Shown in pieces: positions 2,733-23,427 of a DNA stretch of 43,041 bases (its first letter is position 1; each line of letters starts with the position of its first letter). The stretch comes from a virus (lineage: Duplodnaviria; Heunggongvirae; Uroviricota; Caudoviricetes), in IMG/VR virus record IMGVR_UViG_2744054964_000002, positions 1-43,041 of that record; one strand, written 5' to 3'. The notes under the pieces are model-generated. The model was not told the DNA's origin, did not search any database, and saw only the letters and a list, made by a program, of their open reading frames with translations. The position numbers and the translations under genes were made by a program.

Positions 2733-3157
2733 AGGATGGACTCCATTTCGTCGATGTAGAGGCCCTGAGCAATCAGGCGGCTACGGCGGGCGGCACGGGC
2801 TATGCACTCCTGCCGTCTACCTTCCTGCGATTGCTCAATGGCGCGCCGGGTGAACAGACGCGATTTGCCCTGCGGCGTCACAACCTTCGGCTTCGTGACC
2901 AGGTCGAAAGTCCGGTCGCAGATGCCGTCCCCGTTGATCCACTTTTCCGACTCAACGATCTGCGCTATCTGTCCGGAGCCGCGGGTAATACCGTTGGCTA
3001 CCCGGTTAAACTCGATGAGCGTTACGCCAAACTTCTCAGCGATTTCGCTGCCGGTTACCGGGCGGCCGCGCGTCTGAATCATCCAGATAACGCGCTCACG
3101 AAGGCCGGAGAATTGCCCGGTGCGCCCTGGCCTGCGGTAAAATGGTGTGCGTTTCAT
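2729..3157 (-). CDS. Hypothetical protein (142 aa), possible HTH
   Basis: ORF coupled to the exonuclease gene upstream (4-nt overlap); segment VTGSEIAEKFGVTLIEF looks like a helix-turn-helix; no firm family assignment. Confidence 0.5.
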   Translation of the reverse strand: MKRTPFYRRPGRTGQFSGLRERVIWMIQTRGRPVTGSEIAEKFGVTLIEFNRVANGITRGSGQIAQIVESEKWINGDGICDRTFDLVTKPKVVTPQGKSRLFTRRAIEQSQEGRRQECIARAARRSRLIAQGLYIDEMESIL

Positions 3158-4529: not shown

Positions 4530-4532
4530 AAA

Positions 4533-4814
4533 TTAAAACGGGCAGGTTGGATGAAGGCGATCCCACTCTTCTTCGGCGCGGTCGTAACAGATGCGTGTGA
4601 CATAGTCGTTATAGGCTTCCTCTGCCTTTTCACCGACTAGTGCCATTTGCGCTTCTTTTGGGAGAAACAGGCTACTCATTTGCAGAGCATATTTCGGGAA
4701 CATGGCGATCAGTTCTTTCGCCCGGTCGTCGATCCACTTCTCTTTCTCGTCGGTGAGTTGCTGCTCAACCCAGCGCCGATCTTCGATGCGGTCGTAAGTG
4801 AGGTATGCGTTCAT
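4533..4814 (-). CDS. Hypothetical protein (93 aa)
   Basis: ORF in the leftward operon between the coiled-coil gene and recT; acidic; no recognised motif. Confidence 0.45.
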   Translation of the reverse strand: MNAYLTYDRIEDRRWVEQQLTDEKEKWIDDRAKELIAMFPKYALQMSSLFLPKEAQMALVGEKAEEAYNDYVTRICYDRAEEEWDRLHPTCPF

Positions 4815-4821
4815 GGTTGCC

Positions 4822-5793: not shown

Positions 5794-5863
5794 GGTTTCT
5801 CCTGAAATTTGGATGTGCAGAACTCGCCCGCGTAATGCCAGGCCGATCGGTTGAATAGGGTGG

Positions 5864-6061
5864 TTACTGCTGCGCGATGGATTTCGCCGGGAACTCGCCG
5901 TTGCGGATGATGCTTTCTACCGGCCAGCACTCAGCTGACACTTTCTGCTCTGTAGCTGCCAGGCTGCATTCCTGCTGGCTGTCGTAAACGCCGAGAATGA
6001 CATCCTGATAATCACCGTTGGTCATTGCCACGGTCAGGACGAGTGCGAATAAAGTTTCCAT
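5864..6061 (-). CDS. Small hypothetical protein (65 aa from the internal ATG)
   Basis: Track ORF 5864-6115 begins with GTG; an internal ATG at 6061 (METLFALVLTVAMTNGDY...) overlaps the stop of the upstream small ORF (TGATG), suggesting coupled translation. Hydrophobic N-terminus. Confidence 0.35.
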   Translation of the reverse strand: METLFALVLTVAMTNGDYQDVILGVYDSQQECSLAATEQKVSAECWPVESIIRNGEFPAKSIAQQ

Positions 6062-6189
6062 CAGTGAAGAGTCCTCCCGATGGCGACGGCGTAAAGGCGT
6101 TTTGCTTCTTCCCACGCCGGAGCATTGCGATGGAGCACCGCGAACGACGCGAGCCGTTGGGCCTCTCTGATCTGCTGCTGGTTTACCAT
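6061..6189 (-). CDS. Small hypothetical protein (42 aa), not in ORF track
   Basis: Hand-translated MVNQQQIREAQRLASFAVLHRNAPAWEEAKRLYAVAIGRTLH; preceded by AGGAAA RBS; stop overlaps the next start. Confidence 0.3.
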   Translation of the reverse strand: MVNQQQIREAQRLASFAVLHRNAPAWEEAKRLYAVAIGRTLH

Positions 6190-6324
6190 GATTTCCTCTT
6201 GGCCTTATCGCGGCGAACGGAACGGTTAATACAAGACTTCAACGCATTTATTCAGTGTTTCATTGGGCGGTGGATGGCCGCCGGTTGTCATAACTTGAGT
6301 CACTCGTAAATAACTCCAGGTATG

Positions 6325-6348
6325 AAAAAGGCCGCCTACCTGGCAGCC
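6325..6348 (-). terminator. Candidate rho-independent terminator (minus strand)
   Basis: Minus-strand RNA GGCUGCC-AGGUA-GGCGGCC (7-bp stem with one G-U pair) followed by UUUUUC; lies about 75 nt downstream of the 6427-6768 ORF. Confidence 0.4.
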
Positions 6349-6426
6349 TCAACTTGAATGAGTGCCGGGATGTTTAGCCACGCCCGGCGCGTGCTCTCCT
6401 GCTATTCCCCAACAGCAAGAAATCGC

Positions 6427-6768
6427 TTACTCTTTAATTTCCCCAGCAGTAGAAAGGATATATTCATGCAAACCATGCGGACCGTGTGCCCTGACTGCGG
6501 AAGTGAGATGTTCAACCAGCCCGATGATTTTGACTTTGAGACAAATTTCACCGGCGTCAGTTGTGCTGACTGTGGTCGAGAAATCACTAAGGACGATGTT
6601 GTCAATCAGGCCACGGACACGGTCAAAAAACAGATCGACGACATGCTCAGGAATTCCCTGAAAGGAACTGGCTGGAAGTTCAAGTAACTTTAAAAGCTCC
6701 CCGGTCTGAGTAAGTACCTCGCTGGCGTCTACGTTAAGCAGTAGTGGCGCCGTTTTTTTATCTGCCAT
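6427..6768 (-). CDS. Hypothetical protein (113 aa); competes with the antisense ORF 6466-6687
   Basis: ATG at 6766-6768 preceded by GAGGAG RBS (5-nt spacer); same orientation as the surrounding leftward operon; followed by the candidate terminator at 6325-6348. No recognisable domain. Confidence 0.4.
   Translation of the reverse strand: MADKKTAPLLLNVDASEVLTQTGELLKLLELPASSFQGIPEHVVDLFFDRVRGLIDNIVLSDFSTTVSTTDAGEICLKVKIIGLVEHLTSAVRAHGPHGLHEYILSTAGEIKE
6466..6687 (+). CDS. Hypothetical small zinc-ribbon protein (73 aa); antisense to 6427-6768
   Basis: Internal ATG at 6466 with AAGGA RBS; paired CxxCG motifs (CPDCG ... CADCG, 19 residues apart) typical of a zinc ribbon; third-position GC looks higher than in the opposing frame (hand count). 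Confidence 0.35.
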   Translation: MQTMRTVCPDCGSEMFNQPDDFDFETNFTGVSCADCGREITKDDVVNQATDTVKKQIDDMLRNSLKGTGWKFK

Positions 6769-7313
6769 ACACACTCCTCTTTTTGTTTACCGTCAGCCCC
6801 TCGCAAAGAGCTGCTGGTAAACTTCGCCACACTCTCGCAGTGGCCGCGCACATGCCCTTGAGACCTTGTCGCTCATCGCCGCTCATAACCGGTGCGCGTC
6901 TGGCGTTCGCGCTGCTTTACCGGAGCTTGTTTTGATATAAGAACCTTGACCCATCACTACACAGGCTCGCCATTCGGCGACTCAGGGCGGCATCATTACT
7001 GCTGCATTGCCTTTAGGCTGCGGTCTGTCCGCTTTAGTTCTTCATTGGAATCACTCCTCTAAGTTGAATCAGCGCCCCATCATCGGAGCGCTTCAAATTG
7101 AGTGACTTATCAGCTCATCGCAGCGTGGTCCTCTACACCTACCGTACGCATACGGACTCAGTGCTTACCTCGATCCCATCGGGTGCCATTTCTTTTTGCC
7201 AGGAGAGCTACGGCTTGCCTGTCACTCAGTCTGATTTGTTAAAGAAGCAGGCGACTTGCTGTCCGCCGCTGGCTAACTTCGCTCAGCTGTCGATGTTTCG
7301 TTTCGATGAGCTG

Positions 7314-7342
7314 ATTATTAACTAATGGTTATTTTCAGTCAA
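7314..7342 (-). promoter_or_regulatory. Candidate leftward sigma70 promoter (possible pL)
   Basis: On the minus strand TTGACT (7342-7337), 16-17-nt spacer, then TAATAA/AATAAT (7320-7314); embedded in an AT-rich TGGTTA repeat region. Hexamer match only. Confidence 0.3.
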
Positions 7343-7460
7343 TAACCATTGGTTAATTATTTTGCCGTTGGTTATTAAGGTTATGATTTATTGGTTAATT
7401 TAGTTCTGTTATGGATTTGTGCAGTACGTGCTATGCTGCAAAAAACATCAGGAGGTAGCT

Positions 7461-7667
7461 ATGGAACGAGATGAACGTGCAGATGAACGAATAGCCTTCA
7501 TGGCTGGAGAGGTTGGGTGCGTAGTGTTCGAGCTGGTTTATAACGGAATTGAAATCAATAAGGACAACATTGTGGGATTTCTGGAAGGGAAGCGCAAAGC
7601 CGTAGGAAACGTGATCCATAAGGGGATGCTACGGGATGCGGCTGAGATGGTGCGGAAGGGCAAATAA
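7461..7667 (+). CDS. Hypothetical protein (68 aa)
   Basis: ATG at 7461 preceded by AGGAGG RBS and an extended -10 like element (TGcTATGCT, 7429-7437); convergent with the cI-adjacent cassette. Confidence 0.4.
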   Translation: MERDERADERIAFMAGEVGCVVFELVYNGIEINKDNIVGFLEGKRKAVGNVIHKGMLRDAAEMVRKGK

Positions 7668-7686
7668 AAACCCGGCGCTGGCCGGG
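7662..7686 (-). terminator. Rho-independent terminator ending the cI-adjacent cassette
   Basis: Perfect 6-bp GC stem CCCGGC-GCUG-GCCGGG (7671-7686) followed on the minus strand by UUUUUAUUU, starting 8 nt after the stop of the 7695-8045 gene. Confidence 0.6.
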
Positions 7687-7694
7687 TGATAGCG

Positions 7695-8045
7695 CTATTT
7701 CAAAACAAGTCCGTTTAAAGCATCAAGAATTTTAGAAACATAATTACCGAATACATAAACACAAAAAGCAAACACAACTGATAGAATGGCAGAAGAAGCT
7801 TTAAGTGTTGTCTTCATGGATTTTACTCCATTTTCGATTTCACTCAGCCTTGAGTCGATGCTCTTAATGTCTGATTTAATCTCAGCAATATCTCGCTTAA
7901 TGTATTCTACATCGGATTCTAAGCGTGCAACTCTGTATTGCATGTCATCGCCTCCGCCATTACCGTTGCCATGCCTCAAAGTATGCACGTTGAATTCTTC
8001 GTTAGCAACTGGTTGGCTTCGTTTGAGATATGCTGAATTTGCCAT
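7695..8045 (-). CDS. Coiled-coil protein with C-terminal transmembrane helix (XhlA-like architecture); cassette gene B
   Basis: 116-aa ORF; Gly-rich N-terminus (HGNGNGGGDD), heptad-like coiled coil (RLESDVEYIKRDIAEIKSDIKSIDSRLSEIENGVKSMK), hydrophobic C-terminal segment (AILSVVFAFCVYVFGNYV). Start is 1 nt after the stop of gene A. AT-rich by eye. Confidence 0.6.
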   Translation of the reverse strand: MANSAYLKRSQPVANEEFNVHTLRHGNGNGGGDDMQYRVARLESDVEYIKRDIAEIKSDIKSIDSRLSEIENGVKSMKTTLKASSAILSVVFAFCVYVFGNYVSKILDALNGLVLK

Positions 8046-8046
8046 G

Positions 8047-8472
8047 TCAGACTTTCCATTCTTTTGATAAGTAGAAATAACACTCTGAATCGTGAACTAA
8101 TCTACTTTTATCTTTATCATCAATGACATGAAGTGACAGTGTTACCTTGTAAACACCCTCTTCTTTAACAAGGATGTTCATCAGAGACATATTTTCAATG
8201 CTTACTGACTCACTTCCAGAGGTCGTGCCAGCCACAATAGGGTCTGATTGCAATGACTGACCACTACCGAAATCAATTCTCTGGTCGCCAAAAAATAGGT
8301 CTACATCAACACGATAGTTAACTTTAGTTTTAATAATTAGCCCAAAGGAAACGTCAATGCTGATTTTCCCTGAGTGCTCATCTGGCTTTATCCATGGCTG
8401 TGGATAATTTAAGGAGCGCGATATTTTACCGGGAAATATCTGGGATACATATAAAAATGAAATCTTTTCCAT
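8047..8472 (-). CDS. Hypothetical protein (141 aa); cassette gene A
   Basis: ORF with GAGGA RBS 6 nt upstream of the ATG, 72 bp downstream of the cI stop; AT-rich codon usage by eye; no recognised domain. Confidence 0.6.
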   Translation of the reverse strand: MEKISFLYVSQIFPGKISRSLNYPQPWIKPDEHSGKISIDVSFGLIIKTKVNYRVDVDLFFGDQRIDFGSGQSLQSDPIVAGTTSGSESVSIENMSLMNILVKEEGVYKVTLSLHVIDDKDKSRLVHDSECYFYLSKEWKV

Positions 8473-8544
8473 CGCTTATCCTCGTTAGCAAGCTATTTGT
8501 TACCAGATCTTCCCATGATCACTAACCCATCAGCATCTTCGTCT

Positions 8545-9321
8545 CTACAGCAGCACCGAGTACCAGAAGAGACGGCCAATTATCTCGACATCATCAATAT
8601 CAGCCTCTTCGTCTGGGTAGGAGTCGTTGTTGTAACTGCGGATGATCAGCTTCCCACCTGGCTTACGATACAGTTGTTTAATGCGCTTGAGTTGACCATT
8701 CCCGCCATCTGTCTGACCAATGGCATACAGTTTCCCATCAACTATGCGTTTGTTGTTCGTATCGACGGCTACAGTCGTACCATCCGGTATCACAGGTTCC
8801 ATGCTGTCGCCAGTAGCAGGGAAACACAGGATGCCAGACCCATCTGTGTTAGCTCCAACGCGGCGGAGGGTTGCCTTTGAGAACCTGAGCTTAAAACCAT
8901 TGTGATCTTCGCTGTGTACGCGTCCATCGCCACACGCAAATTCAATATCCTTAAGAAACGGCACTTCAACCTCGTCAGCAGGAAGCGGTGTGTTTTTATC
9001 CCAGGCGTCAACAGTTCCCCATTCAGATTCTGGAGGGATAGATGACTCCCTACGCAGTTCAGGTTCGGGATCATTCCTTCCGTATTCAAGCCACTCAGGC
9101 CGTACCCCAAGCCAGCGGCTAAGGGCAAGGATATTGGTTTGGTCTGGTATCGCTGATGCGTTAAGCCATTTCCAGATCCCGGGCTCAGATACAGTAATTC
9201 CTTGGGACTTCATAGCCTCTCTGATCCTACCAGCCTGCCCACGACCACCAACGCCAGCATCAAGCAATGCAGCGCGAAGTCTTTTCGAGAATTCTTCTTT
9301 TAAATCGTCTTTTTTAACCAT
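8545..9321 (-). CDS. cI: CI-like prophage repressor (N-terminal HTH, C-terminal LexA/S24-type autocleavage domain)
   Basis: 258-aa ORF; C-terminal domain contains the S24 serine motif (ATGDSMEP) and downstream lysine (KRIVDGKLYAIG); divergent from a cro-like gene across an operator-bearing intergenic region. Confidence 0.9.
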   Translation of the reverse strand: MVKKDDLKEEFSKRLRAALLDAGVGGRGQAGRIREAMKSQGITVSEPGIWKWLNASAIPDQTNILALSRWLGVRPEWLEYGRNDPEPELRRESSIPPESEWGTVDAWDKNTPLPADEVEVPFLKDIEFACGDGRVHSEDHNGFKLRFSKATLRRVGANTDGSGILCFPATGDSMEPVIPDGTTVAVDTNNKRIVDGKLYAIGQTDGGNGQLKRIKQLYRKPGGKLIIRSYNNDSYPDEEADIDDVEIIGRLFWYSVLL

Positions 9322-9405
9322 TCGTTAATTATCAATTAGAGTTGACATAACTGTCAGTTAAGATATAACCTTAACTCGTAGTTAATATAGTTAACGGAAA
9401 ACACT
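9322..9405. promoter_or_regulatory. OR-like operator/promoter region between cI and cro
   Basis: Palindromic TTAACT/AGTTAA half-site pairs (TAACTGTCAGTTA at 9348-9360; TTAACTCGTAGTTAA at 9371-9385; GTTAAC at 9391-9396) overlapping a strong rightward promoter: -35 TTGACA (9342-9347), 16-nt spacer, -10 TATAAC (9364-9369). Confidence 0.65.
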
Positions 9406-9651
9406 ATGAACCCAATGCAATTTGCAATCGAAGCTGTAGGCGGTCAAACCGCTGCTGCTCGCCTGTGTGGCCTATCGAACGTTGCTATTCACAAGTGGGT
9501 GAAGAACGCGGCGCTGCCTCGTACTGAGTACACAGAGAAAACCAACTATTCGCAGCTTTTGGCTGACGCATCAAATGGGCAGTTTACGGCTGAATGGCTC
9601 CGTCAAGCAGCTAACCCTGACCGAATTAAACAAGATTCACATGCCGCCTGA
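9406..9651 (+). CDS. cro: Cro-like HTH regulator
   Basis: 81-aa ORF, first rightward gene after the operators; HTH-like segment TAAARLCGLSNVAIHKWVKNAALP. Confidence 0.7.
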   Translation: MNPMQFAIEAVGGQTAAARLCGLSNVAIHKWVKNAALPRTEYTEKTNYSQLLADASNGQFTAEWLRQAANPDRIKQDSHAA

Positions 9652-9691
9652 CCGGCGGCAATAACCAATTAAATCAGAGGAAGTATCGCAA

Positions 9692-9913
9692 ATGGAAACC
9701 TTAACGACACGCAACAAAGCGGAGGCGCGACGAATTGAGAGCTGGGTGCAGCGGCAAATCGCAGATCTTGGGACAACCAGGATCGCCGAAGTAGCTGGCG
9801 TCAACAAATCAACCGTAAGCCGGTGGCGGGAGAGCCTGGTGCCGAACATGTCGCTGCTGCTGGCCATCCTGATTTCGAACAGGGATGGAGCGAAGGGAGA
9901 TTTTGAAGCATGA
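9692..9913 (+). CDS. cII: CII-like transcriptional activator
   Basis: 73-aa ORF; RRIESWVQRQIADLGTTRIAEVAGVNKSTVSRWRESLVPNMSLLLAIL closely parallels lambda CII (as recalled: ALRIESALLNKIAMLGTEKTAEAVGVDKSQISRWKRDWIPKFSMLLAVL). Confidence 0.7.
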   Translation: METLTTRNKAEARRIESWVQRQIADLGTTRIAEVAGVNKSTVSRWRESLVPNMSLLLAILISNRDGAKGDFEA

Positions 9914-10140
9914 ACGTAGAAAGGGCGAAAGCCGCGGTGCTGGAACACCAACGGCTTTCAGGTGCAAAAACGACAGTAGTTGCAGGAGGAATAATGGCAA
10001 AAAATCCACGCTATTACCATACCGCTGTACATAAAAACATAACCCGCGACCGCTTCATCCGCTCGGTTAATCCGATTGTGGCAGAGAAGATGCGCGCCAT
10101 CCTGGAAGAACTGAAACGTAAGGAGAGTGGCCGTGGGTAA
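9910..10140 (+). CDS. Hypothetical protein (76 aa)
   Basis: ORF between the cII-like gene and the replication initiator; basic; no recognised motif. Confidence 0.45.
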   Translation: MNVERAKAAVLEHQRLSGAKTTVVAGGIMAKNPRYYHTAVHKNITRDRFIRSVNPIVAEKMRAILEELKRKESGRG

Positions 10141-11032
10141 CGTATCCAATTTAGCCGAAGCCAGAGAGGCCAGAAGGCTCCAGAAACCGCGCACGAATGA
10201 CGGTAAGGGGTTTGCCTTGCTGCACCGTAAAATTATGGATGTGCCGTTCTACAAGGACGCTGAGGCGGCTCATTTATGGGTTCACCTGCTCCTGCGCGCT
10301 AATCATGAACAGACACTGGTATCGACTGATGTCGGCGATGTGATCTGCGAGCGCGGAGAGTTCATTACCGGGCGAAACACGCTGGCAATGGAAACGGGTT
10401 TGACCGCTGATCGCGTTAAATCACTGCTCCGTAAATTCCAGAACCTGGGCATGATCACCACCAAATCGAACAACCGTTTTACTGTTCTAAAAGTGGTCAA
10501 ATATGACGAATATCAGTCAAATTTTTGTCCAGCCGATGTCCAGCCGGTGTCCAGCGCAAACGCAGTTATATCAATGCCTGTGGAGGTGGAGTGTCCAGCC
10601 GATGTCCAGCCAGTGTCCACAGATAACAATATATTAAATAACTTACTACCTAACGGTAGTAAGTATGTCGCAAATGACCAGAAACCCGCTGAAGAGAAAA
10701 AGTCTCGTTTGTCATGCGATGAAGTGTGGCAATGCCTGAAAGACGAACTGCCTGAAGCCCGGGGATGGAGATGCCTCACTGATGAGCGACGCAATCTGAT
10801 CCGCACATTCTGGGGTAAGGCTAACAAAATTGCCCGCAACCTGGACGGCAAGCCGATGGACATGGACGGTTTCAGAAGTTATCTGCGTTACATCGCTCAG
10901 AACTGCCGCTGGATGCTTGAAGACCGACCAGACCAGAAATCCGGGAAGACCTGGCGCCGCATGAAATTCGATAAGTTCCTGACCGAAAAGCTCTACATCG
11001 AAGTGCGCGAGGGGGATCGTGATGACCGCTGA
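10127..11032 (+). CDS. Replication initiator, lambda O-like (origin-binding), with the origin inside the gene
   Basis: 301-aa ORF (GTG start at 10127 or 10133 after AGGAGA); N-terminal region FALLHRKIMDVPFYKD...ERGEFITGRNTLAMETGL resembles phage replication protein O N-domain; contains the iteron array; followed with overlap by a DnaB-type helicase gene. Confidence 0.7.
   Translation: MAVGNVSNLAEAREARRLQKPRTNDGKGFALLHRKIMDVPFYKDAEAAHLWVHLLLRANHEQTLVSTDVGDVICERGEFITGRNTLAMETGLTADRVKSLLRKFQNLGMITTKSNNRFTVLKVVKYDEYQSNFCPADVQPVSSANAVISMPVEVECPADVQPVSTDNNILNNLLPNGSKYVANDQKPAEEKKSRLSCDEVWQCLKDELPEARGWRCLTDERRNLIRTFWGKANKIARNLDGKPMDMDGFRSYLRYIAQNCRWMLEDRPDQKSGKTWRRMKFDKFLTEKLYIEVREGDRDDR
10526..10664 (+). 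repeat. Candidate origin of replication: two clusters of three 11-bp-phased TGTCCAGCC iterons, AT-rich tract and 10-bp inverted repeat
   Basis: TGTCCAGCCG at 10526, 10537, 10548 and again at 10593, 10604, 10615 (11-bp period), then AT-rich ATAACAATATATTAAATA and perfect inverted repeat ACTTACTACC-TAAC-GGTAGTAAGT (10641-10664). Confidence 0.65.
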
Positions 11033-12455
11033 TTTCATGGCTGTACCACAAAACCTCGAAGCAGAGCAGAGCGTTATCGGTGGCCTGCTGCTGGATGATG
11101 ACAACAGCGAGCGAGTCCAGAAGGTTCTGGCGATGCTCAAGCCTGAGTCGTTCTACAGCCGACCTCACCAGCTGATCTTTGCAGAGATGCGCCAGATGTT
11201 CCGCGACAACAAGCCAGTCGATGGTCTGACATTGTTCGACGCGCTTGAAGGCAAAGGGCTCGCGGAGCAGGTAGGTGGCTTTGCTTACCTGGCGGAGATA
11301 GCCAAGAACACTCCCAGCGCTGCAAACATCGTAGCTTACGCAGCATCAGTCCGGGAAGCCGCAATGGAGCGCTACGGTATCAACCGCCTGACCGAAGCTA
11401 CTGAACTGCTGTATTCCCGCAACGGCATGAGCGCTACGCAGAAGTACGAGGCCATTCAGGGTATTTTCACCCAGCTCGCAGACCATTCAAAAACCGGAAG
11501 TCGTCGTGGGTTGCGGTCTTTCGGCGAGGTTATGGATGACTGGGTAGCGGATCTGGAGAAACGGTTTGACCCTTCAGGCGAACAGCGCGGCATGAGTACC
11601 GGTATCCCGTCACTAGACCGGCTGCTGGCGCCGAAAGGTCTGGTTAAAGGCTCTCTGTTCGTGATTGGCGCAAGGCCAAAGATGGGCAAGACAACGCTGT
11701 ACGGGCAGATGGCGATCAACTGCGCGGTTCGTGAGAAAAAGCCAGCGCTGATGTTCAGCCTCGAAATGCCTGGCGACCAGATCCTTGAAAAGCTGGTTGG
11801 TCAGAAGTCCGGCATTAACCCGAGCATTTTTTACATGCCCGCCACGGATGACGCCGATGACCAGTACCAGGGCGACTACGACGGCGACTTTAAGAAGGCG
11901 ATAGCAACAGCCGGGCGGCTGAGTGAAATCGACATGCTGTACATCGACGACACCCCGGGCCTGTCACTGGCGCACATTGTTAGCGAAAGCCGCCGAATCA
12001 AACGCGAGAAGGGCTGCGTAGGCATGATTTTGGTTGACTACCTGACGCTGATGACCGCCGAAAAGGCCGACCGTAATGACCTGGCCTACGGGATGATCAC
12101 CAAAGGGTTGAAGAACCTCGCCAAAGAGCTTGGCTGCGTCGTCGTGCTGCTGACCCAGCTCAACCGCGAACTGGAGAAGCGAGTGAATAAACGCCCGTTG
12201 CCGAGTGATTCCCGCGACACAGGACAGATTGAGCAGGACTGCGACTACTGGGTTGGTATCCACCGGGAAGGTGCTTTCGATGACAGCGTGCCGCCGGGCG
12301 AAACCGAGTTAATCCTGCGACTCAACCGCCACGGCAGTACCGGCACGGTGTATTGCAATCAGATTAACGGGGCAATTTACGACACAGACCAGCAGGCCGC
12401 CGCCGCAGAACGCCGCGGGCGCGAGCAGCAGCCGAAAAAGAAAGGGGGCTTCTGA
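11019..12455 (+). CDS. Replicative DNA helicase, DnaB family
   Basis: 478-aa ORF; N-terminal EAEQSVIGGLLLD (DnaB N-domain), Walker A GARPKMGKTT, downstream DnaB-like motifs (MFSLEM, ILVDYLTLM, VLLTQLNR). Confidence 0.9.
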   Translation: MMTADFMAVPQNLEAEQSVIGGLLLDDDNSERVQKVLAMLKPESFYSRPHQLIFAEMRQMFRDNKPVDGLTLFDALEGKGLAEQVGGFAYLAEIAKNTPSAANIVAYAASVREAAMERYGINRLTEATELLYSRNGMSATQKYEAIQGIFTQLADHSKTGSRRGLRSFGEVMDDWVADLEKRFDPSGEQRGMSTGIPSLDRLLAPKGLVKGSLFVIGARPKMGKTTLYGQMAINCAVREKKPALMFSLEMPGDQILEKLVGQKSGINPSIFYMPATDDADDQYQGDYDGDFKKAIATAGRLSEIDMLYIDDTPGLSLAHIVSESRRIKREKGCVGMILVDYLTLMTAEKADRNDLAYGMITKGLKNLAKELGCVVVLLTQLNRELEKRVNKRPLPSDSRDTGQIEQDCDYWVGIHREGAFDDSVPPGETELILRLNRHGSTGTVYCNQINGAIYDTDQQAAAAERRGREQQPKKKGGF

Positions 12456-12754
12456 TGAAAGGCAAACAGGCAATTCTGCGTTATCTCGAAACGCATCGGA
12501 CCTTCACCGCGAAGGATGTGGCCACAGAGTGCGGCATGACCATCAACTGCATCACGAAGAACGCTATCGATCTGGAGCGGGCCCGCAAGATTGTCCGGGT
12601 GAGCAAGGTCTGGCGAACGGTGACTTATCGCCTGGCGACGCCGGAAGAGCAGGACGGCACCGCGCGCAGCTGCACCAACGGAATATTTCAGGAGTGCCGC
12701 AACAGCCCGGCGATGAAACGAATTTTGATGGTTTGGGGGAGGGTAGGGGTATGA
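12455..12754 (+). CDS. Hypothetical protein (99 aa)
   Basis: ORF start overlaps the helicase stop (TGATG); no recognised motif. Confidence 0.5.
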   Translation: MKGKQAILRYLETHRTFTAKDVATECGMTINCITKNAIDLERARKIVRVSKVWRTVTYRLATPEEQDGTARSCTNGIFQECRNSPAMKRILMVWGRVGV

Positions 12755-13170
12755 GCAACAAATACGAAGATCTGATTAAAAATGCCAGGGTGAATGCCGA
12801 ATGTGGTGAGCACATGTCGCCTGAAGAGGTTACGACTTTGCTTAACGTGGTTGAAACCACATTCGCGGCGCTGGCTGCGGAGAATGAGTGGCTGAAGGAG
12901 TGGAGCCCTAATCCGCATAGCGCCTCGATTTTTGAGGCTATCGAGAAAGCCGAAGCGCTCATGGATGACGGAATGCCAGAACTGGCGATGATCAAGGCGT
13001 TCGAAATTCTCAAGATGAAGCGAACCCCGGCCACCGACGATTTCCTGGCTGAAGTGCGGGCTCAGGGTGTGGAGATGTTGGCGGAACATTTATCCGGAAT
13101 GAATATCAGCGCCAGCGAAAACAGCGTTCGCGAGTTCGCCACTCAGCTTCGCGAAGGAGTGCAGTCATGA
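12751..13170 (+). CDS. Hypothetical protein (139 aa)
   Basis: Internal ATG at 12751 of track ORF 12529-13170, preceded by GGGGTAGGGG and overlapping the upstream stop (ATGA); the upstream part of the track ORF is an out-of-frame overlap with the previous gene. Confidence 0.5.
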   Translation: MSNKYEDLIKNARVNAECGEHMSPEEVTTLLNVVETTFAALAAENEWLKEWSPNPHSASIFEAIEKAEALMDDGMPELAMIKAFEILKMKRTPATDDFLAEVRAQGVEMLAEHLSGMNISASENSVREFATQLREGVQS

Positions 13171-13427
13171 GCATTCTGGACATTCTAAACACTGGTCTCG
13201 CTCTGATGGGGTGGTTATTCATCATGTTCAAAACGGGCCAGTGGTTTATCTCCATTGCGCTAAAACAGTGGGATACGCGTAGAAAGCTATCTCGTAGACA
13301 GAAGGCAGTAAACGAATTTTACGATGCGTTTGACCTGTCCAGCATCGAACCAGGAACAACGGTGCGCCTGGCGACTAAAGGCGATCTGACAATCATGATG
13401 TATCGCACAGAAGGGGTCGCCCAATGA
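13167..13427 (+). CDS. Hypothetical small membrane protein (86 aa)
   Basis: N-terminal hydrophobic helix (ILNTGLALMGWLFIMF); ATGA overlap with flanking genes. Confidence 0.5.
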   Translation: MSILDILNTGLALMGWLFIMFKTGQWFISIALKQWDTRRKLSRRQKAVNEFYDAFDLSSIEPGTTVRLATKGDLTIMMYRTEGVAQ

Positions 13428-13843
13428 GCAACATCAACAAACAGGAGTTGCGCAGAACATCCGATCGCGACTGGTTTGAGGATTGGTTTAAGCGAGAATT
13501 CCATCCAGATAAGACAGGCCCATATATCAAAGACCAGCTGTTCTTTGCTGTACTGGCTGCAAGAGCGCCGCTGCTGGATGAGCTGGAAGCCGCAGAGAAG
13601 CGGATTGCAGAGCTGGAGGCACGGGAAGTGAAATTGCCTAATCCTCATGCTCACCTCATCTGGATTCAGGCAGGCCATGCCCCTGATGACTATTGGGATG
13701 ATGTTGCCGTTTCTCATAGCGAAAAGGATAAGTGCTGCGACGGTTCAGATCGCTATCCGGTTTATACTCTCTGGGAAATCAAAGAGGCACTATCTGCTAT
13801 TGGCATCAACATCGCCGCAGCCGGTAAAGGAGAGGACTCATGA
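13424..13843 (+). CDS. Hypothetical protein (139 aa)
   Basis: ORF with ATGA coupling on both sides; no recognised motif. Confidence 0.5.
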   Translation: MSNINKQELRRTSDRDWFEDWFKREFHPDKTGPYIKDQLFFAVLAARAPLLDELEAAEKRIAELEAREVKLPNPHAHLIWIQAGHAPDDYWDDVAVSHSEKDKCCDGSDRYPVYTLWEIKEALSAIGINIAAAGKGEDS

Positions 13844-14598
13844 GCACTATTGCCCGAGAATTCACCAAAGAGCAGTTACAGCAAATTATCGAAACTGACC
13901 ACGTTCAATGCGGTGAGGCTTCGGCGCTGGCGCGTATCGCGCTGGCATCGCTCGAAGCGGAGCCTGTGGCGTGGCTACTGTCAGGAGGCGGCGCAAAAAA
14001 CAACGTCAGCTTCGATAGTGGCAATGCTTATGCCGACCCGCTGCGAGAAGTAACGCCGCTTTACACCGCCCCTCCAGCGCCGGTATCTGTGCCTGATGAG
14101 ATGGAAATGGATGATGACTTTGACAGCGCGTTTGAGCATGGAAAAGCAGTCGGCTGGAACGCCTGCCGCGCCGCCATGCTTCAGGGTGCCGAACCTGTAA
14201 ACCAGAACGATGAGTTACCGCTGGACTATCTGCAAGGCCACAAAGACGGGCTGGAGTGGTCGGCACAACTGGCAGAAGCCAATCATCCGCAAACAGGTGA
14301 CTGGTTGTACGATGACCCAATCGAGCTTGCTAGGGCGATTCGCAAAGGTCCGGATATGCCTACAGCTCAGGATGGCAACTCTCCGGTAACTCCAGATGGT
14401 TGGATTCCGGTAAGCGAGCGGATGCCAAATGATAAAGACTTTGTATGGTGTTGGGGATATGTCTCTGGGTGGACGGAATCAGATGGCTTTGAAGCTTACT
14501 ACGACGCAACTAGAAACAAATGGTGGACCATAGATGACGAAACGGTTCGAAAGGTAACACACTGGATGCCACTTCCAGCAGCACCTCTGTGGGAATGA
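13840..14598 (+). CDS. Hypothetical protein with C-terminal DUF551-like domain
   Basis: 252-aa ORF; C-terminal GWIPVSERMPNDKDFVWCWGY...WWTIDDETVRKVTHWMPLPAAP matches the Trp-rich DUF551 pattern common in lambdoid nin regions. Confidence 0.55.
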   Translation: MSTIAREFTKEQLQQIIETDHVQCGEASALARIALASLEAEPVAWLLSGGGAKNNVSFDSGNAYADPLREVTPLYTAPPAPVSVPDEMEMDDDFDSAFEHGKAVGWNACRAAMLQGAEPVNQNDELPLDYLQGHKDGLEWSAQLAEANHPQTGDWLYDDPIELARAIRKGPDMPTAQDGNSPVTPDGWIPVSERMPNDKDFVWCWGYVSGWTESDGFEAYYDATRNKWWTIDDETVRKVTHWMPLPAAPLWE

Positions 14599-14659
14599 TG
14601 TATAATCCATCTCAATTTATTTAGAGAATTTACTATCACGTATAATGGGAATCGAGTAA

Positions 14660-14944
14660 ATGAGATGGATTTTAGCAATGGCGTTAGTTATGCCAATTTC
14701 AACTTCAATTGCAAAAAACAATGACTCATTTGATTACAAAAGAAAAACAGAGTCAGTTTGCTTTGACCCATCCAATAAAGAAAAGCAAGATTTATGTGAA
14801 AAAATAGTTAAGTCAATGCTGTTGAATGCCGCCTTTGCTGGTTACTCAGAGGCGGCATGTACTGCTAAAATTGTAAAAGATAAACAACGGTGTAAAGCAA
14901 CAGAAGAAGAATACCAAGAATTAATTAGATTCAGCATGCCATAA
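14660..14944 (+). CDS. Small secreted Cys-containing protein (94 aa), AT-rich moron
   Basis: N-terminal signal-peptide-like MRWILAMALVMPISTSIA; four Cys; low GC by eye; two TATAAT hexamers upstream (14605-14610, 14641-14646). Confidence 0.5.
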   Translation: MRWILAMALVMPISTSIAKNNDSFDYKRKTESVCFDPSNKEKQDLCEKIVKSMLLNAAFAGYSEAACTAKIVKDKQRCKATEEEYQELIRFSMP

Positions 14945-15122
14945 ATTGATTTTCCAGAATCAACCCTCCATAATCATGTCATCGGAGCCTGAACAACTCC
15001 GGTGACTTCTGCGCATTTAAGGGGACTTAAATGCGACCACAATCTGAACTCCTCACCTTGTCACAGATGCAGAAATGCACCTGCGATTTTCTGCATTCTG
15101 CGTTACCTCTCGGAGGTGGCGT

Positions 15123-15572
15123 ATGAAGCAGCACTACTGCATCGTTAACGACACCGTTAAAGACAACCTCATCGCGTACATTCGCACCCTACCGGTAAAC
15201 CCTCGTGCGCCAATGGTGGTCGAGGCTCGGGAAGAGACCCGCACCGACAAGCAAAATCGTTTGATGTGGCCGCTGCTGAAAGACCTGTCTGACCAGGTTG
15301 TCTGGCACGGCGAGAAGTTGACCCGCGAAGAGTGGAAGGACCTCATCACCGTTCTGGTGAATCAGACCCAGGACCAGGAACAGAAATCCGCGCCGGGCAT
15401 CAACGGCGGCCGCGTTTATTTCGGCGTCCGCACATCCAAATCCAGCAAGCGTTACATGGTCGATGTGATCGAGGCGATTTACTGGTTCGGTACCGACCGC
15501 GGCGTGAAGTTCTCCGAAGCATCCAATAAGCGCATCGCCTGGGCGCAAGAGTGGAGGACTTCCCGTGGGTAA
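15123..15572 (+). CDS. ninB: NinB (Orf-family recombination mediator)
   Basis: Internal ATG at 15123 after GGAGGTGG RBS; DKQNRLMWPLLKDLSDQVVWHGEKLTREEWKDLI...GVKFSEASNKRIAWAQEWR aligns by eye with lambda NinB. Confidence 0.85.
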   Translation: MKQHYCIVNDTVKDNLIAYIRTLPVNPRAPMVVEAREETRTDKQNRLMWPLLKDLSDQVVWHGEKLTREEWKDLITVLVNQTQDQEQKSAPGINGGRVYFGVRTSKSSKRYMVDVIEAIYWFGTDRGVKFSEASNKRIAWAQEWRTSRG

Positions 15573-15735
15573 TCCTCTCGCACGCGTCATCACAAACGAA
15601 ATCTTTCGCGTTCCGGCGCGCCGCCAGCGTAAGCCCGCGGTTAAGCCGTCCGACATCCCGACTTTCAAGGACTACACCGCCAGTCTGGTGGATCAGAAAT
15701 GGCTGCGCCTCGCAGCGAGGAGAAAATCCGCATGA
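15565..15735 (+). CDS. NinE-like small protein (56 aa), not in ORF track
   Basis: GTG start after GGAGGA; translation [56 protein letters not shown] resembles lambda NinE as recalled; its stop overlaps the phosphatase ATG. Confidence 0.45.
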
Positions 15736-16400
15736 GCATGTATCAACGCATTAATGGCGCTGACTGGCGCCATATCTTCGTCGTCGGGGATCTGCATGGG
15801 TGCTACACGCTGCTGATGAATGAGCTCGAAAAAGTTTCGTTCGACCCTGCGCGTGATTTGCTGATCTCGGTTGGTGACCTTGTTGACCGCGGCGCGGAAA
15901 ACGTCGAGTGCCTGGATCTGATTACTATGTCGTGGTTCAGGGCAGTGCGCGGTAACCATGAGCAGATGATGGTTGATGGGCTTTCAGAGCATGGAAACGT
16001 CAATCACTGGCTGGTAAACGGTGGCGGTTGGTTCTTCAATCTCGACTATGACAAAGAGGTGCTGGCTAAGGCTCTGGTTCACAAGGCAGCTGAGTTACCA
16101 CTCATCATCGAGCTGGTTACCTCCGATCGGAAAATCGTAATTTGCCACGCTGACTACCCGCATAACGAATATGCGTTCGACAAGCCGGTCCCGAAAGACA
16201 TGGTCATCTGGAATCGTGAGCGGGTTAGCGACGCTCAGGGCGGCATTGTCTCGCCGATAGCCGGTGCTGATCTGTTTATCTTCGGCCACACCCCTGCGCG
16301 CCATCCCCTGAAGTATGCCAACCAGATGTACATCGACACAGGAGCGGTGTTTTGCGGAAACCTCACGCTGGTTCAGGTGCAAGGTGGTGACCATGAGTAA
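15732..16400 (+). CDS. Lambda-type Ser/Thr protein phosphatase (NinI-like metallophosphoesterase)
   Basis: 222-aa ORF from ATG 15732; metallophosphatase motifs GDLHGC, GDLVDRG, GNHE; same size and position as lambda PPase. Confidence 0.9.
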
Positions 16401-16677
16401 AACCTACCGCAGCAAGAAGTGGCTCGCCGCAGTCGGCCAGATTGAGCAATGCGTCCTTTGCGGAGCGTGGGGCGTACAGGTAGCACACCGCAATGAAGGT
16501 AAGGGAATTGGCATGAAGACAGACGACTGCGCCACCGCCGCTATCTGTGTCACCTGCCATTCAGAGATTGATAACGGGAAGGGGCTTAGCCGTGACGAGC
16601 GCCGCCAGTTAATGGATCGCGCCATCGTCCTGACCATTATTCAGATTGCCCGTCGTGGCTTGGTGGTGCCTGCATGA
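16393..16677 (+). CDS. DUF1364-like Cys-rich nin-region protein
   Basis: 94-aa ORF from ATG 16393 (ATGA overlap with the phosphatase); [20 protein letters not shown]...[11 protein letters not shown] has the paired-Cys pattern of DUF1364-type phage proteins (from memory). Confidence 0.55.
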
Positions 16678-17033
16678 AAATCTACGACATCACACCAATC
16701 GGCAAGCCTCGCATGACCCGCGCGGATAAGTGGAAGCAGCGTCCACCTGTAATGCGTTACCGCGCTTTTTGCGATGAGGTCCGCCTGCGCAAGTTGACCA
16801 TGCCTGAATCCGGATCACATGTGACATTCGTCCTACCAATGCCACCAAGCTGGAGTAAGAAGAAACGAGCGGAGTTCGCCGGGAAGCCCCACCAGGCCAA
16901 GCCAGACTGCGACAACATGCTGAAAGCCCTGATGGATGCGCTTTATGAGGATGATGCTCACATCTGGGATTGCCGCATCACAAAGGTCTGGGGAGAGAAG
17001 GGGCAGATCATTATTGGGGAGTGCGCGCCGTGA
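16674..17033 (+). CDS. rusA: RusA Holliday-junction resolvase
   Basis: 119-aa ORF; ITPIGKPRMTRADKW...KPDCDNMLKALMDAL matches RusA, including the catalytic Asp-containing DNxxK region. Confidence 0.9.
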   Translation: MKIYDITPIGKPRMTRADKWKQRPPVMRYRAFCDEVRLRKLTMPESGSHVTFVLPMPPSWSKKKRAEFAGKPHQAKPDCDNMLKALMDALYEDDAHIWDCRITKVWGEKGQIIIGECAP

Positions 17034-17142
17034 CCAGAGACGAGATAACCCGATACCAGGCAGAAAGCGTTAAGCGCGCCAGCCTGCCGCCAGTAGCAAA
17101 GCACAGCCAGACCAAAACCAACCAGCCACAGAAGGAAGCCGC

Positions 17143-17832
17143 ATGAACAGTCAGCAACTGGAATACGTACGTCAGCAGCTCATTGTGGCGACCGCAGACC
17201 TCAGCGGGGCGACGAAAGGGCAGCTGGTAGCTTTCGCCGAAAACGCGCAGTTCACCGCGACGGCGCGCAGCCGGGGCAGGAAGAAAATCACCGACCCGGT
17301 CACTGGTCGGAAAGTTAACCCTGACGGCCCGGCGATGAGCGGCAGCCAGTCCCGCGCAAAGGGATCATCTATCGCGCTGGTGGGGCCGGTTGAGTTTGTG
17401 ACCGCATCGTGGCGCCGCGCGGTGCTGTCGCTTGAAGACCACCAGAAAGCATGGCTTCTGTGGAACTACAGCGAGAATATCCGCTTCGAGTACCAGGTGG
17501 CGATAACTCAGTGGGCATGGGCAGAGTTCAGGGAACAGCTCGGCGCGAAGAAAGTGGCGGGCAAGACGATGGAGCGCCTGAAGAAGCTTGTCTGGCTCGC
17601 GGCTCAGGACGTGAAAGCAGAGCTGGCAGGGCGTGAGATGTACGAATATCAGGCGCTGGCGTCGCTGGTTGGCGTAACGCCAAAAAACTGGTCAGAGACC
17701 TTTACTGACCGCTGGGTTGAGATGCGCAGCATCTTCCTGCGACTGGATAGCGGGGCTTTATTGCAGGTTACGCGATCACGTTCACAACAAAAGGCGACAA
17801 ATTTAGACTCAAGTCTTGCAAAACTGGATTGA
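17143..17832 (+). CDS. Putative late-gene antiterminator (Q-like)
   Basis: 229-aa ORF located between rusA and the late promoter/terminator, as Q is in lambdoid phages; assignment by position and general resemblance, not a confident family match. Confidence 0.5.
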   Translation: MNSQQLEYVRQQLIVATADLSGATKGQLVAFAENAQFTATARSRGRKKITDPVTGRKVNPDGPAMSGSQSRAKGSSIALVGPVEFVTASWRRAVLSLEDHQKAWLLWNYSENIRFEYQVAITQWAWAEFREQLGAKKVAGKTMERLKKLVWLAAQDVKAELAGREMYEYQALASLVGVTPKNWSETFTDRWVEMRSIFLRLDSGALLQVTRSRSQQKATNLDSSLAKLD

Positions 17833-17844: not shown

Positions 17845-17897
17845 TCATGTAAATCTGATATCGTCGCCATAGCTTCGTAGGTCGACAAAGAATTAAG

Positions 17898-17922
17898 AAC
17901 CCGCCATCGAGCGGGTTTTTTG
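17898..17922 (+). terminator. Rho-independent terminator (tR'-like)
   Basis: CCCGC-CATCGA-GCGGG stem-loop followed by TTTTTTG, about 50-70 nt downstream of the candidate pR' start. Confidence 0.65.
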
Positions 17923-18403: not shown

Positions 18404-19303
18404 ATGCCAAATTGGATAGACGTGTTGGGCGAGATGGGTACTATTGCTCAACGTACACCAGCGGATGAGGTTCGCCACAAGTACTTACGAGAGTTGTCGA
18501 AGCATACAGGCCGAAACGTAATTTCATATTACTCAGGCTTCCTCCAGAAGGGGGGGCCTGGGTTGCAGCATTTAATACAAATGTCAGATGACGATAAAAA
18601 TGGTCTTATGTCAGCCATTAACGGCTTAGACACGTCATTAGGGCTGGATATCTTGCTTCATACCCCAGGGGGAGATATTGCAGCATTGGAATCTATTGGT
18701 CATTATCTTCGTTCAAAATTTGGGACCAATATCCGGGCAATTGTTCCTATGATCTCAATGAGTTGTGGGACCATGTTGGCTTGCTGTGCCGAACAGATTG
18801 TATTGGGCAAACAGTCAAATTTGGGGCCAATTGATCCGCAGCTTGGTGGTTTATCATCTCATGCGATCATAGAAGAGTATGAGCGAGCTAAGAAAGAGAT
18901 TTCTGAAAATGCTGCAGCGATCCAATGGTGGCAATTTACTCTTCAAAAGCTAAACCCGACTCTCATTGGTGAATGTGAAAAGGCTATTGTTTGGGCTAAT
19001 GAAATAGTACAAAAATGGCTGTGTACTGGTATGTTTGCAGGTCATGCTAACGCTCAAGATAAGGCTAAGCGAATTTGTGATGAGCTAAACAATCATCATA
19101 CAACCTATGCGCATGCTAGACATATTCATCTGGATAAAGCGCAAAGCATTGGTTTGAACATTATGGAGCTGGAGAGCGACCAAACTCTGCAGGATCTTGT
19201 GCTGACTATACATCATTGCTACATGCATTCATTTGGTACGAGTCCTGCTGCGAAAATTATTGAAAATCATAATGGCAGCACGATGATGTGGAATATTCGC
19301 TAA
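18404..19303 (+). CDS. ClpP/crotonase-fold serine peptidase-like protein (S49/SDH-like); second cassette gene
   Basis: 299-aa ORF; LLHTPGGDI resembles the xxSPGG oxyanion-hole motif of ClpP/SppA-fold peptidases; candidate nucleophile in MISMSCGTMLA; AT-rich by eye. Family call is motif-based only. Confidence 0.55.
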   Translation: MPNWIDVLGEMGTIAQRTPADEVRHKYLRELSKHTGRNVISYYSGFLQKGGPGLQHLIQMSDDDKNGLMSAINGLDTSLGLDILLHTPGGDIAALESIGHYLRSKFGTNIRAIVPMISMSCGTMLACCAEQIVLGKQSNLGPIDPQLGGLSSHAIIEEYERAKKEISENAAAIQWWQFTLQKLNPTLIGECEKAIVWANEIVQKWLCTGMFAGHANAQDKAKRICDELNNHHTTYAHARHIHLDKAQSIGLNIMELESDQTLQDLVLTIHHCYMHSFGTSPAAKIIENHNGSTMMWNIR

Positions 19304-21983: not shown

Positions 21984-22622
21984 ATGGCAACACTCAAAGA
22001 CCTTTCTCAGCAATTAAAGAAGGTACAAAAGCAGGTGCCATATGCTACAGCACTAGCTATGACAAAAGTTGTTCGTCAAATAGAAACGGCACAGAAAACA
22101 GCGTTCGAACGACATCTGGAGAGCCCGACACCGTTTACCGTTAAATCAGTTGGTTCGGTGGCGGCAAGGAAGAACAACCTGACTGCAAAGGTTTTTGTCC
22201 GCGATACCGCGGCTGGTTATCTGGAACCATTCGAGTTAGGTGGAGAGCATAAGCTCAATAGCCAAGCGCTATTGAACCCCAAGAACGTCAAGCTAAACAA
22301 ATACGGCAACATGCCGCGTAATAAGCTCTCACAGCTTAAAGCAAAGGAAAATGTATTCGTAGGTGAGGTTGATGGCGTTAACGCTGTCTGGCAGCGTAAG
22401 AAGCCGATGAAAGCTAAGAAGCGACGGGCCAAACGTTCCGCTAACGGGACGCGAAGACCGAAACGCAAACAGCGTTCTCCAAAGCTTTTGATCCGGTTTG
22501 GTGATGCGCTACCTGTGACTCCAGTGCTGGGGTATATGGATAGGGCCCGTACCATGGCGAACGCACTGCTACCGTCTGCTTTAAATCAGGCGATAGCAGA
22601 AGCCATCAGGACGGCAAAATAA
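21984..22622 (+). CDS. Hypothetical protein with basic Lys/Arg-rich segment (212 aa)
   Basis: Internal ATG at 21984 (the upstream part of the track ORF contains the terminator); KKPMKAKKRRAKRSANGTRRPKRKQR basic tract; no confident family. Confidence 0.5.
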   Translation: MATLKDLSQQLKKVQKQVPYATALAMTKVVRQIETAQKTAFERHLESPTPFTVKSVGSVAARKNNLTAKVFVRDTAAGYLEPFELGGEHKLNSQALLNPKNVKLNKYGNMPRNKLSQLKAKENVFVGEVDGVNAVWQRKKPMKAKKRRAKRSANGTRRPKRKQRSPKLLIRFGDALPVTPVLGYMDRARTMANALLPSALNQAIAEAIRTAK

Positions 22623-22632
22623 AAGCAGTAAC

Positions 22633-23136
22633 TTATAAGTTAATTTCGCAAGCTTTTATGAAGCTGTTTACTGCAGTTGTCGATCCAGAAACATTGGCTG
22701 ACATGGAATGCTGGTTTCCGCCATCCTTTGTTTGCACACCAACTAACACTTTGGATTTCGCCCCCTGAAGCTGCTTAAGCACTGTTTTTAGTTGGTCCGC
22801 GTCATCCGATTGAATCTGGAGGCTCTGAACATTACGTCTTGAAAGGGTAGCATCGAGCTTCACTGCGGTATTCCCGTCGACCTTCATTATCAGGTCCATT
22901 GGTACCTCTGATAGTGATTCGGTGCTTTTATCCATTTCAACGTATGCCGCCGATAGCTTTTCTTTAGTGCAGTCAAACACAATGGCGCCATTGTCGGATG
23001 AAACCTCGCCAAGCATCATTGCTTTCTTACCACCAGAGAAAAGGTCATCTTCAGTATTAGTTACCCACTGGGCATGAGCAATTGGTGATGCCAGCACTGC
23101 GGCTACGAAAGTTATTTTGATTATATTGTTACCCAT
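22633..23136 (-). CDS. Secreted hypothetical protein (167 aa), opposite-strand moron between lysis genes and cos
   Basis: ATG at 23134-23136 after AAGGAG RBS; N-terminal signal peptide MGNNIIKITFVAAVLASPIAHA; only minus-strand gene in the late region, in the position bor occupies in lambda. Confidence 0.55.
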   Translation of the reverse strand: MGNNIIKITFVAAVLASPIAHAQWVTNTEDDLFSGGKKAMMLGEVSSDNGAIVFDCTKEKLSAAYVEMDKSTESLSEVPMDLIMKVDGNTAVKLDATLSRRNVQSLQIQSDDADQLKTVLKQLQGAKSKVLVGVQTKDGGNQHSMSANVSGSTTAVNSFIKACEINL

Positions 23137-23229
23137 TACATTCTCCTTGTATTGAATAGGAATAATCATAGTCGGAGCGAATGGTCGAAGCCAATAAAAA
23201 AATGGGTCCTTCCTGAGACTTTTGTAAGG

Positions 23230-23260
23230 TACGGGCATTGCGCGCCGCGGTGTTTTCCTA
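23230..23260. other. Candidate cosN-like region
   Basis: GC-rich GGGCATTGCGCGCCGCGGTGTTTTCCTAGCTA resembles, from memory, the lambda left cohesive end (GGGCGGCGACCTCGCGGGTTTTCGCTA); lies about 170 bp upstream of the small terminase gene. Confidence 0.3.
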
Positions 23261-23279: not shown

Positions 23280-23427
23280 TGTCCCATGTCCCACCTCTGG
23301 CGATCATTACGGACACCTCGCCAGCTCTGGCTATTCCAGTTTATTCCAGTGGGACATTCTGGTGGGACATGGCAAAAATGTCCCAGGCGAATGTCCCACC
23401 CCAGAAAATGTCCCAGGTGATGTCCCA
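23280..23427 (+). repeat. Array of eight TGTCCCA / TGGGACA heptamers (candidate cosB-type small-terminase binding sites)
   Basis: TGTCCCA at 23280, 23287, 23379, 23392, 23409, 23421; inverted TGGGACA at 23350, 23363; the last copy abuts the terminase small subunit start codon. Confidence 0.6.

Follow-up and report, generated by a model that had tools for sequence, protein, structure and literature searches.

A probable periplasmic moron abutting the cos region of an Escherichia coli prophage

Morons are where temperate phages hold genes that alter their hosts, and soluble periplasmic morons of known function are, to our knowledge, few, SodC and T4 Spackle being examples. T4 Spackle (Sp) is a small soluble periplasmic phage protein with a signal peptide that acts in superinfection exclusion, and HK97 gp15 is a superinfection-exclusion protein as well. 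In lambda, the bor gene lies on the minus strand in the region between the lysis genes and cos and encodes an exported envelope protein, an outer-membrane lipoprotein with a lipobox, which is cargo unneeded by virions. Morons have been defined as DNA that is extra relative to related phages, deviates in GC content and carries its own transcription signals (PMC3594210). HK97 gp15 is the prototype moron beside the tape-measure gene, a classic moron site, and its product is said to insert into the inner membrane (PMC3594210). On the cellular side, IalB-domain proteins are periplasmic envelope proteins whose mechanism is undefined (PMC7327166).

We describe here a gene (hereafter the target) within the window, by which we mean the whole 43,041-nt stretch of phage DNA that was analyzed. 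Taken together, the evidence makes it very probable that the target is an exported periplasmic moron. Elements of this kind, morons for envelope proteins, are well known; the protein family is uncharacterized, unnamed, and without a Pfam entry. Like lambda bor, the target is a minus-strand gene in the region between the lysis genes and cos and encodes an exported envelope protein that virions apparently do not need, but Bor is an outer-membrane lipoprotein with a lipobox and the target product is not. Some target homologues share the tape-measure-proximal slot of HK97 gp15, although gp15 is an inner-membrane protein, whereas the target product is predicted to be soluble and periplasmic, and the two have no sequence relationship. 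The likeness to T4 Spackle is one of functional analogy only, as we detected no homology and the fold modeled for the target is mainly beta.

The gene and its exported product

The target encodes 167 amino acids at 22633..23136 on the minus strand, beginning at an ATG at 23136-23134. The coding sequence defined by the open reading frame and its translation is the same as that called by NCBI PGAP in the annotated chromosome of E. coli 2018-10-1CC, where it is entered as a hypothetical protein (WP_001472855.1); the window is itself an E. coli prophage, and its positions 17403-42835 are 99.7% identical to that chromosome. A ribosome-binding site, AAGGAG, stands 6 nt 5′ of the ATG (23143..23148, minus strand), in agreement with the strong site noted in a preliminary description of this DNA, and relatives of the target retain it as AAGGAG or AAGGGG. 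The protein matches phrog_19473 from end to end (E 1.6e-99), its residues 1-167 covering all 167 positions of the profile. Comparison with an allele of 81% identity gives a pN of 0.106 and a pS of 0.646 (dN/dS ~0.08; alleles at greater distance show saturation at synonymous sites), from which we conclude that the target is under purifying selection. This selection and the homologue clusters described below confirm, at the level of sequence comparison, that the target is a genuine gene. A longer ORF of 227 aa, starting from a GTG at 23316, was ruled out because PGAP and the homologues start at the ATG and, furthermore, because the upstream extension consists of promoter-like and cos DNA. Neither a second copy nor a remnant of the target was found elsewhere in the window, and no Rfam family or tRNA was found to overlap the locus.

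The N terminus of the product has the makeup of a cleavable signal peptide. Features were computed on the protein and on 119 aligned family members and judged by rules for the n-, h-, and c-regions, not by SignalP. Residues 1-22 (23071..23136, minus strand) read MGNNIIKITFVAAVLASPIAHA and are followed by QW after a predicted SPase I site, AHA/QW. They combine a basic residue (K7), a hydrophobic 9-mer (ITFVAAVLA, mean Kyte-Doolittle 2.7), and an A-x-A motif at the cleavage site, so that n-, h-, and c-regions with small residues at -3/-1, as expected of soluble proteins exported through Sec and cleaved by SPase I, are all present. In the family, 116 of the 119 aligned members could be assessed, having the conserved W with 15-45 residues before it; all 116 have a hydrophobic core, 111 have a basic residue within the first 8 positions, and 95 have small residues at -3/-1. 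A lipobox is absent from the target, whose first Cys is residue 56, and from every one of the 119 members.

The mature protein has 145 aa, a mass of 15.5 kDa, and a pI of ~5. Exactly two Cys occur in the mature part of 114/119 family members; W24 and C56 are invariant in the family, and C163 is present in at least 90% of it. From this conservation we infer a C56-C163 disulfide in the target, which is consistent with the oxidizing periplasm. The sequence features thus strongly support a product with a cleavable Sec signal peptide that is released as a soluble periplasmic protein of ~15.5 kDa. The preliminary description had proposed a classic signal peptide, a periplasmic product, and a protein that is no Bor homologue. 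All three proposals stand: the features are those of an exported non-lipoprotein in the target and in its family alike, and the search against Pfam gave no Bor match.

The cassette and its position beside cos

In the late region, Q and a Clp-fold protease gene are followed by genes for two holins, a GH19 endolysin, and Rz/Rz1, by three small to medium-sized genes on the plus strand, and by the target on the minus strand. Beyond the target come terS, a gpA-type terL, gpW, the portal, and an S49 protease, then the decoration and capsid proteins and a contractile tail of the Mu-like type. In the PGAP annotation no other CDS from Q to the tail-fiber genes lies on the minus strand, as had been said of the target from the ORF list. 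The window sequence from 23196 onward can be aligned with lambda at both chromosome ends. Alignment with the lambda right end places a cosQ-like GGGTCCT, the sequence we take to be that of lambda cosQ, at 23204..23210 (plus strand), where it abuts the cassette. The register with both lambda ends (alignment A4) predicts a 12-nt cohesive-end segment of cosN, GGCATTGCGCGC, at 23234..23245 (plus strand), whose flanks GGTACG and CGCGG-GTTTTC are conserved relative to lambda. The target ATG is 68 nt from the cosQ-like element and 98 nt from the predicted cosN, a position in which no other gene would follow the target on the right arm of the chromosome as packaged. The GGGACAT motif occurs seven times in the 43-kb window, and all seven copies, in both orientations and forming inverted and direct repeats, fall within 141 bp (23286..23426) located between cosN and the start codon of terS; they are likely to be cosB, the site of terS binding.

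The comparison with bor drawn in the preliminary description holds as an analogy of position. The target agrees with lambda bor in strand and in interval, both genes lying on the minus strand between Rz and cos. Unlike bor, however, the target abuts cosQ directly; two further lambda ORFs lie between bor and cos, so the two slots are analogous, not identical. On its other side the target converges with orf212 (21984..22622, plus strand), the last late-strand gene before cos, which matches phrog_1924 (2.2e-60; labeled “minor tail protein”), has no Pfam family, and contains a very basic segment, KKPMKAKKRRAKRSANGTRRPKRKQRSPK. This gene adjoins the target in every lambda-type context seen, yet stays where the target is missing, and by this distribution it belongs to the phage backbone, outside the cassette.

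The limits of the cassette are given by close relatives. Twelve complete E. coli genomes match the window at 99.7-99.9% identity, with the match starting exactly at 23203. The sibling prophage of E. coli AW1.7 is 99.7% identical from cosQ rightwards and is without exactly 22623-23202: 15 nt separate the end of its orf212 homologue (80% aa identity) from cosQ, and the target gene is absent. The AW1.7 terS is the identical protein (WP_000210383.1), and the two prophages carry terS, gpW, portal, and protease under the same accessions. The comparison therefore delimits a dispensable cassette of ~580 bp (22623..23202, minus strand), present here and missing in the sibling, and it strongly supports, from genome sequence, the view that the target is unneeded for virion production.

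In base composition, the target gene (44.6% GC) and the whole cassette (43.4%) differ from terS (52.5%), terL (55.4%), and the portal gene (55.1%), with the lysis-distal genes at 20.8-22.2 kb likewise low in GC. Against the definition of a moron, the target represents extra DNA relative to a close relative and has deviating GC, but the window allele is without a terminator of its own. The genomic comparisons support its classification as an accessory gene and not as part of the virion.

Upstream of the target lies a promoter-like element (23165..23194, minus strand; 9/12 in a consensus scan) composed of TTGGCT (23194-23189), an 18-nt spacer, and TATGAT (23170-23165), and preceded by a T-tract at 23195-23203 (minus strand). 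The consensus scan alone is at chance level, with 1 promoter-like site found versus 1.4 expected. Across the family, ~33 of the 44 distinct upstream sequences have a block of the form T-tract / [TA]T[GA]GC / TAT[GC]AT, placed 34-37 nt 5′ of the ATG; they include lambda-type cos phages and unrelated phages with HK97-type terminases. Two copies in tail modules (L071 and L072), with 39% identity at the protein level, have the block as well, and so does a chromosomal copy in Leminorella, where the script counted 44 nt to the ATG. That it travels with target homologues across such unrelated contexts supports its interpretation as a putative promoter. In the window the -35 hexamer is TTGGCT, and most loci with an identical protein have ATGGCT.

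Downstream, most relatives have a hairpin terminator (~25 nt) 3′ of the stop codon. None was found at the window allele, where the convergent stop codons of the target and orf212 are 10 nt apart (22623-22632), and the whole group of alleles with 100% identity is without the ~25-nt hairpin; read-through antisense to orf212 is therefore possible. In the repressed lysogen of this phage the target is, judging from these signals, probably transcribed. Homologues in several other phages are co-oriented with their neighbors within early or late operons, and expression in the lysogen is thus not universal for the family.

Further features of the window concern other potential cargo sites. An Rfam isrJ match (RF01393, an Hfq-binding sRNA; 58.7 bits) lies directly downstream of Q at 17848-17920 (plus strand). 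Between Q and the holins, a slot that in Stx phages is the position of the toxin gene, there is a gene for an SDH-family Clp-fold serine protease (18404-19303, plus strand), which may be another cargo gene. A hydrophobic ORF of 48 aa (36823-36969, plus strand) lies in the gap between the tape measure and gpN (36690-37029), together with an evident intrinsic terminator (36993-37013); by position this gap is a second moron-like slot, the same one that holds the homologue in loci L010 and L067. Only positions 1-1651 and 17403-42835 align with the 2018-10-1CC prophage, and the early region (1652-17402) is unmatched in it, a mismatch that, from the alignment, is typical lambdoid mosaicism.

The homologue family, its slots, and its fold

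A word-indexed search identified 33 close homologue clusters, all from Enterobacterales, and an exhaustive profile search identified 271 homologue clusters at 50% identity; the named family members are all entered as “hypothetical protein.” At least eight different slots are occupied by target homologues. The lambda-type cos slot is represented in E. coli, Salmonella, and Klebsiella and accounts for most of 58 IMG/VR loci. In the HK97-type slot, which is bounded by Rz and a Terminase_4 terS, the homologue is on the opposite strand, and at the end of Mu-like prophages it follows com-mom, with host flanks that differ in each genome. Other homologues are located in the gap between tape measure and gpN (the Dryocola locus L010, and L067), before the tape measure beside a Fic/DOC gene, and in the early region of Mu-like phages upstream of GemA/Mor, and a paralogue (P0198) has cI/HicAB on one side and the antirepressor-kil-gam genes on the other, within an immunity region of the lambdoid type.

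Chromosomal copies were also found, in Leminorella, Acidiphilium, and another genome, with no phage genes in the flanks examined (6-8 kb on each side). Distant chromosomal homologues in alpha-proteobacteria are surrounded by housekeeping genes, and the ancestral role may therefore lie in cellular envelope physiology and not in anti-phage activity. The target allele itself is present in 23 of 5426 complete E. coli genomes (0.4%), and the carrier strains come from humans, animals, and water. Searches of 50,697 deposited phage records by megablast and tblastn gave no match to the target, and in the literature we found no paper for its accession, nor one on the family through IalB and prophages or through periplasmic morons.

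Two sets of loci illustrate how the region around cos recombines. Across sibling phages (IMG/VR loci L045, L047, and L058), terL, terS, and portal remain 90-100% identical, whereas the target drops to 62-81% and orf212 to ~80% identity, with a sharp mosaic boundary at cos. In locus L055 (7400-8010), 50 bp of the lambda-like cosQ/cosN block next to the cassette are 88% identical to the window; in phages of this type the terminase has an HK97-type TerL and a small subunit of the Terminase_4 family, and one ORF resembles an HNH endonuclease by look. The shared block points to recombination inside cos, or else to cos sequence being shared, unexpectedly, by different terminase types.

An AlphaFold2 model of the target (pLDDT 85, with values above 90 for the greater part of the mature protein; pTM 0.77) has, in order, seven strands, one helix, two further strands, and a second helix, and it strongly supports a predicted beta-sandwich with two helices. 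A Foldseek search of the PDB returned nothing at E <=0.001 (matches to TEAD and Kir have a TM of ~0.25), and one of BFVD returned only uncharacterized proteins of T4-like phages (TM ~0.5). Sequence and profile searches of the PDB gave nothing meaningful, the matches being to proteins designed de novo and to sequences alike in the signal peptide. For the target, Pfam, NCBIfam, PADLOC, and PHROGs yielded only phrog_19473, which has no function assigned, and matches at chance level to DUF7767 (E 0.03), to SigF, and to a Type I S subunit; PADLOC-DB contained no known defense family that fits, its match to a Type I specificity subunit (E 0.007) being spurious. The target has no sequence or fold similarity to the periplasmic lysozyme inhibitors Ivy, PliC/MliC, PliG, and PliI. 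The preliminary description had named confident homology to a virion structural component as one result that would overturn it; the HMM and structure searches revealed none, and no PHROG structural annotation fits the target.

Pfam searches with 43 and then 119 family members likewise found no common family. IalB (PF06776) was touched by 1 of the 119 (E 0.002; 18.7 bits versus a cut-off of 22.1), with no match for the target or for the other 118, and VasI was touched by two at E 0.17 or worse. Bartonella IalB (invasion-associated locus B; PDB 3dtd) has 13% sequence identity to the target, and profile searches of the PDB miss 3dtd. PDB chain 8z5n_A, from the sodium-driven motor of a polar flagellum and presumably MotY with its N-terminal domain as the matched part, to go by chain length, has 9% identity; this is a resemblance only, and flagellar genes surround none of the phage copies of the target. 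The target is best described as a predicted periplasmic beta-sandwich that may represent a remote branch of the IalB superfamily.

Possible functions of the protein

With moderate confidence, we favor an account in which promoter, RBS, and ORF form one cassette that sits as a moron between the last late gene and cosQ and has a role in exclusion or protection. The cassette would be autonomous within a host prophage that combines a lambda-like head with a Mu-like tail. Its promoter would be of the sigma-70 type and drive transcription opposite to that of the late genes, so that synthesis would be possible in the repressed lysogen, as with lambda bor. The exported protein of ~15.5 kDa, stapled by the C56-C163 disulfide, would bind a periplasmic or envelope partner and could intercept an incoming phage at a periplasmic step, through its tail-tip or ejection proteins or during the passage of its DNA. 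The logic of exclusion would be that of T4 Spackle, carried out by an unrelated fold.

The function itself, superinfection exclusion or envelope protection, is put forward tentatively and by analogy; no sequence family in Pfam, PHROGs, or NCBIfam ties the target to any exclusion protein. We prefer exclusion to virulence toward a mammalian host because homologues occur in early operons and in slots that hold protection genes, namely beside cI/HicAB, beside Fic/DOC, and at the tape-measure site of the HK97 gp15 type.

A conversion factor for host fitness or virulence, following the logic of Bor or the action of IalB and conferring, from the periplasm or envelope, resistance to serum, lysozyme, antimicrobial peptides, or envelope stress, or aiding colonization or invasion, appears unlikely to us. 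The target has the orientation and the cos-proximal slot of lambda bor, its carriers come from humans, animals, and water, and one family member touches Pfam IalB (E 0.002), whose domain is that of periplasmic envelope proteins (PMC7327166). This similarity, however, is below the Pfam threshold and limited to 1/119 members, and the mechanism of IalB is itself undefined (PMC7327166). Copies in Mu early operons and in tail operons would, moreover, be unexpected for virulence cargo directed at the host, and only 0.4% of complete E. coli genomes carry the target.

We consider it improbable that the protein is a periplasmic helper of the lytic cycle, acting for example on lysis timing or envelope remodeling. 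The analogy here is T4 RI, a periplasmic antiholin, and it draws on the adjacency of the target to the lysis cassette in this prophage and in HK97-type relatives and on homologues that appear to be co-transcribed with early or late genes. Against it, the target opposes late transcription here, the adjoining lysis cassettes are mosaic and unrelated between phages, the target is missing from a sibling phage whose lysis and packaging region is related, and chromosomal copies exist with no phage nearby.

Very improbable, in our judgment, is an orphan immunity protein against interbacterial toxins that act in the periplasm, such as T6SS cell-wall effectors or colicins. Small soluble periplasmic proteins that bear a disulfide and reside on mobile elements fit the general profile of such immunity proteins, and the target, with its putative disulfide, is of this description; two family members also match Pfam VasI, a T6SS accessory protein, faintly (E 0.17 or worse), but these matches are at chance level, and no effector or T6SS gene adjoins any of the copies examined. 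Finally, a virion structural or assembly component, as late-strand homologues between tape measure and gpN or just 5′ of the tape measure might suggest, is highly improbable, given that the Sec signal peptide is conserved family-wide, yet tailed-phage virions assemble in the cytoplasm, that the sibling prophage with the same-accession terS, gpW, portal, and protease is without the target, that PHROG structural annotation is inapplicable, and that the tape-measure-proximal slot is a classic moron site (compare HK97 gp15; PMC3594210).

An exported moron with a role in exclusion or protection remains our preferred reading, and the family to which it belongs has been captured repeatedly at classic cargo sites of unrelated phages. 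A broader and doubtful extension of this reading is that the family constitutes a widespread, unrecognized class of soluble periplasmic proteins that exclude phages or block DNA entry, with an IalB-like beta-sandwich fold and an origin in a cellular envelope protein, which temperate phages of Enterobacterales would carry as a promoter-bearing cassette that hops between moron slots (cos, Mu end, tape-measure gene, immunity region, and Mu early region). Sibling prophages that differ by the 580-bp cassette amount to a natural knockout, so a phenotype is directly testable. Without one the target would stay an ordinary cargo gene; if a phenotype is found, it would provide a function for hundreds of hypothetical proteins and might illuminate the IalB-like periplasmic fold.
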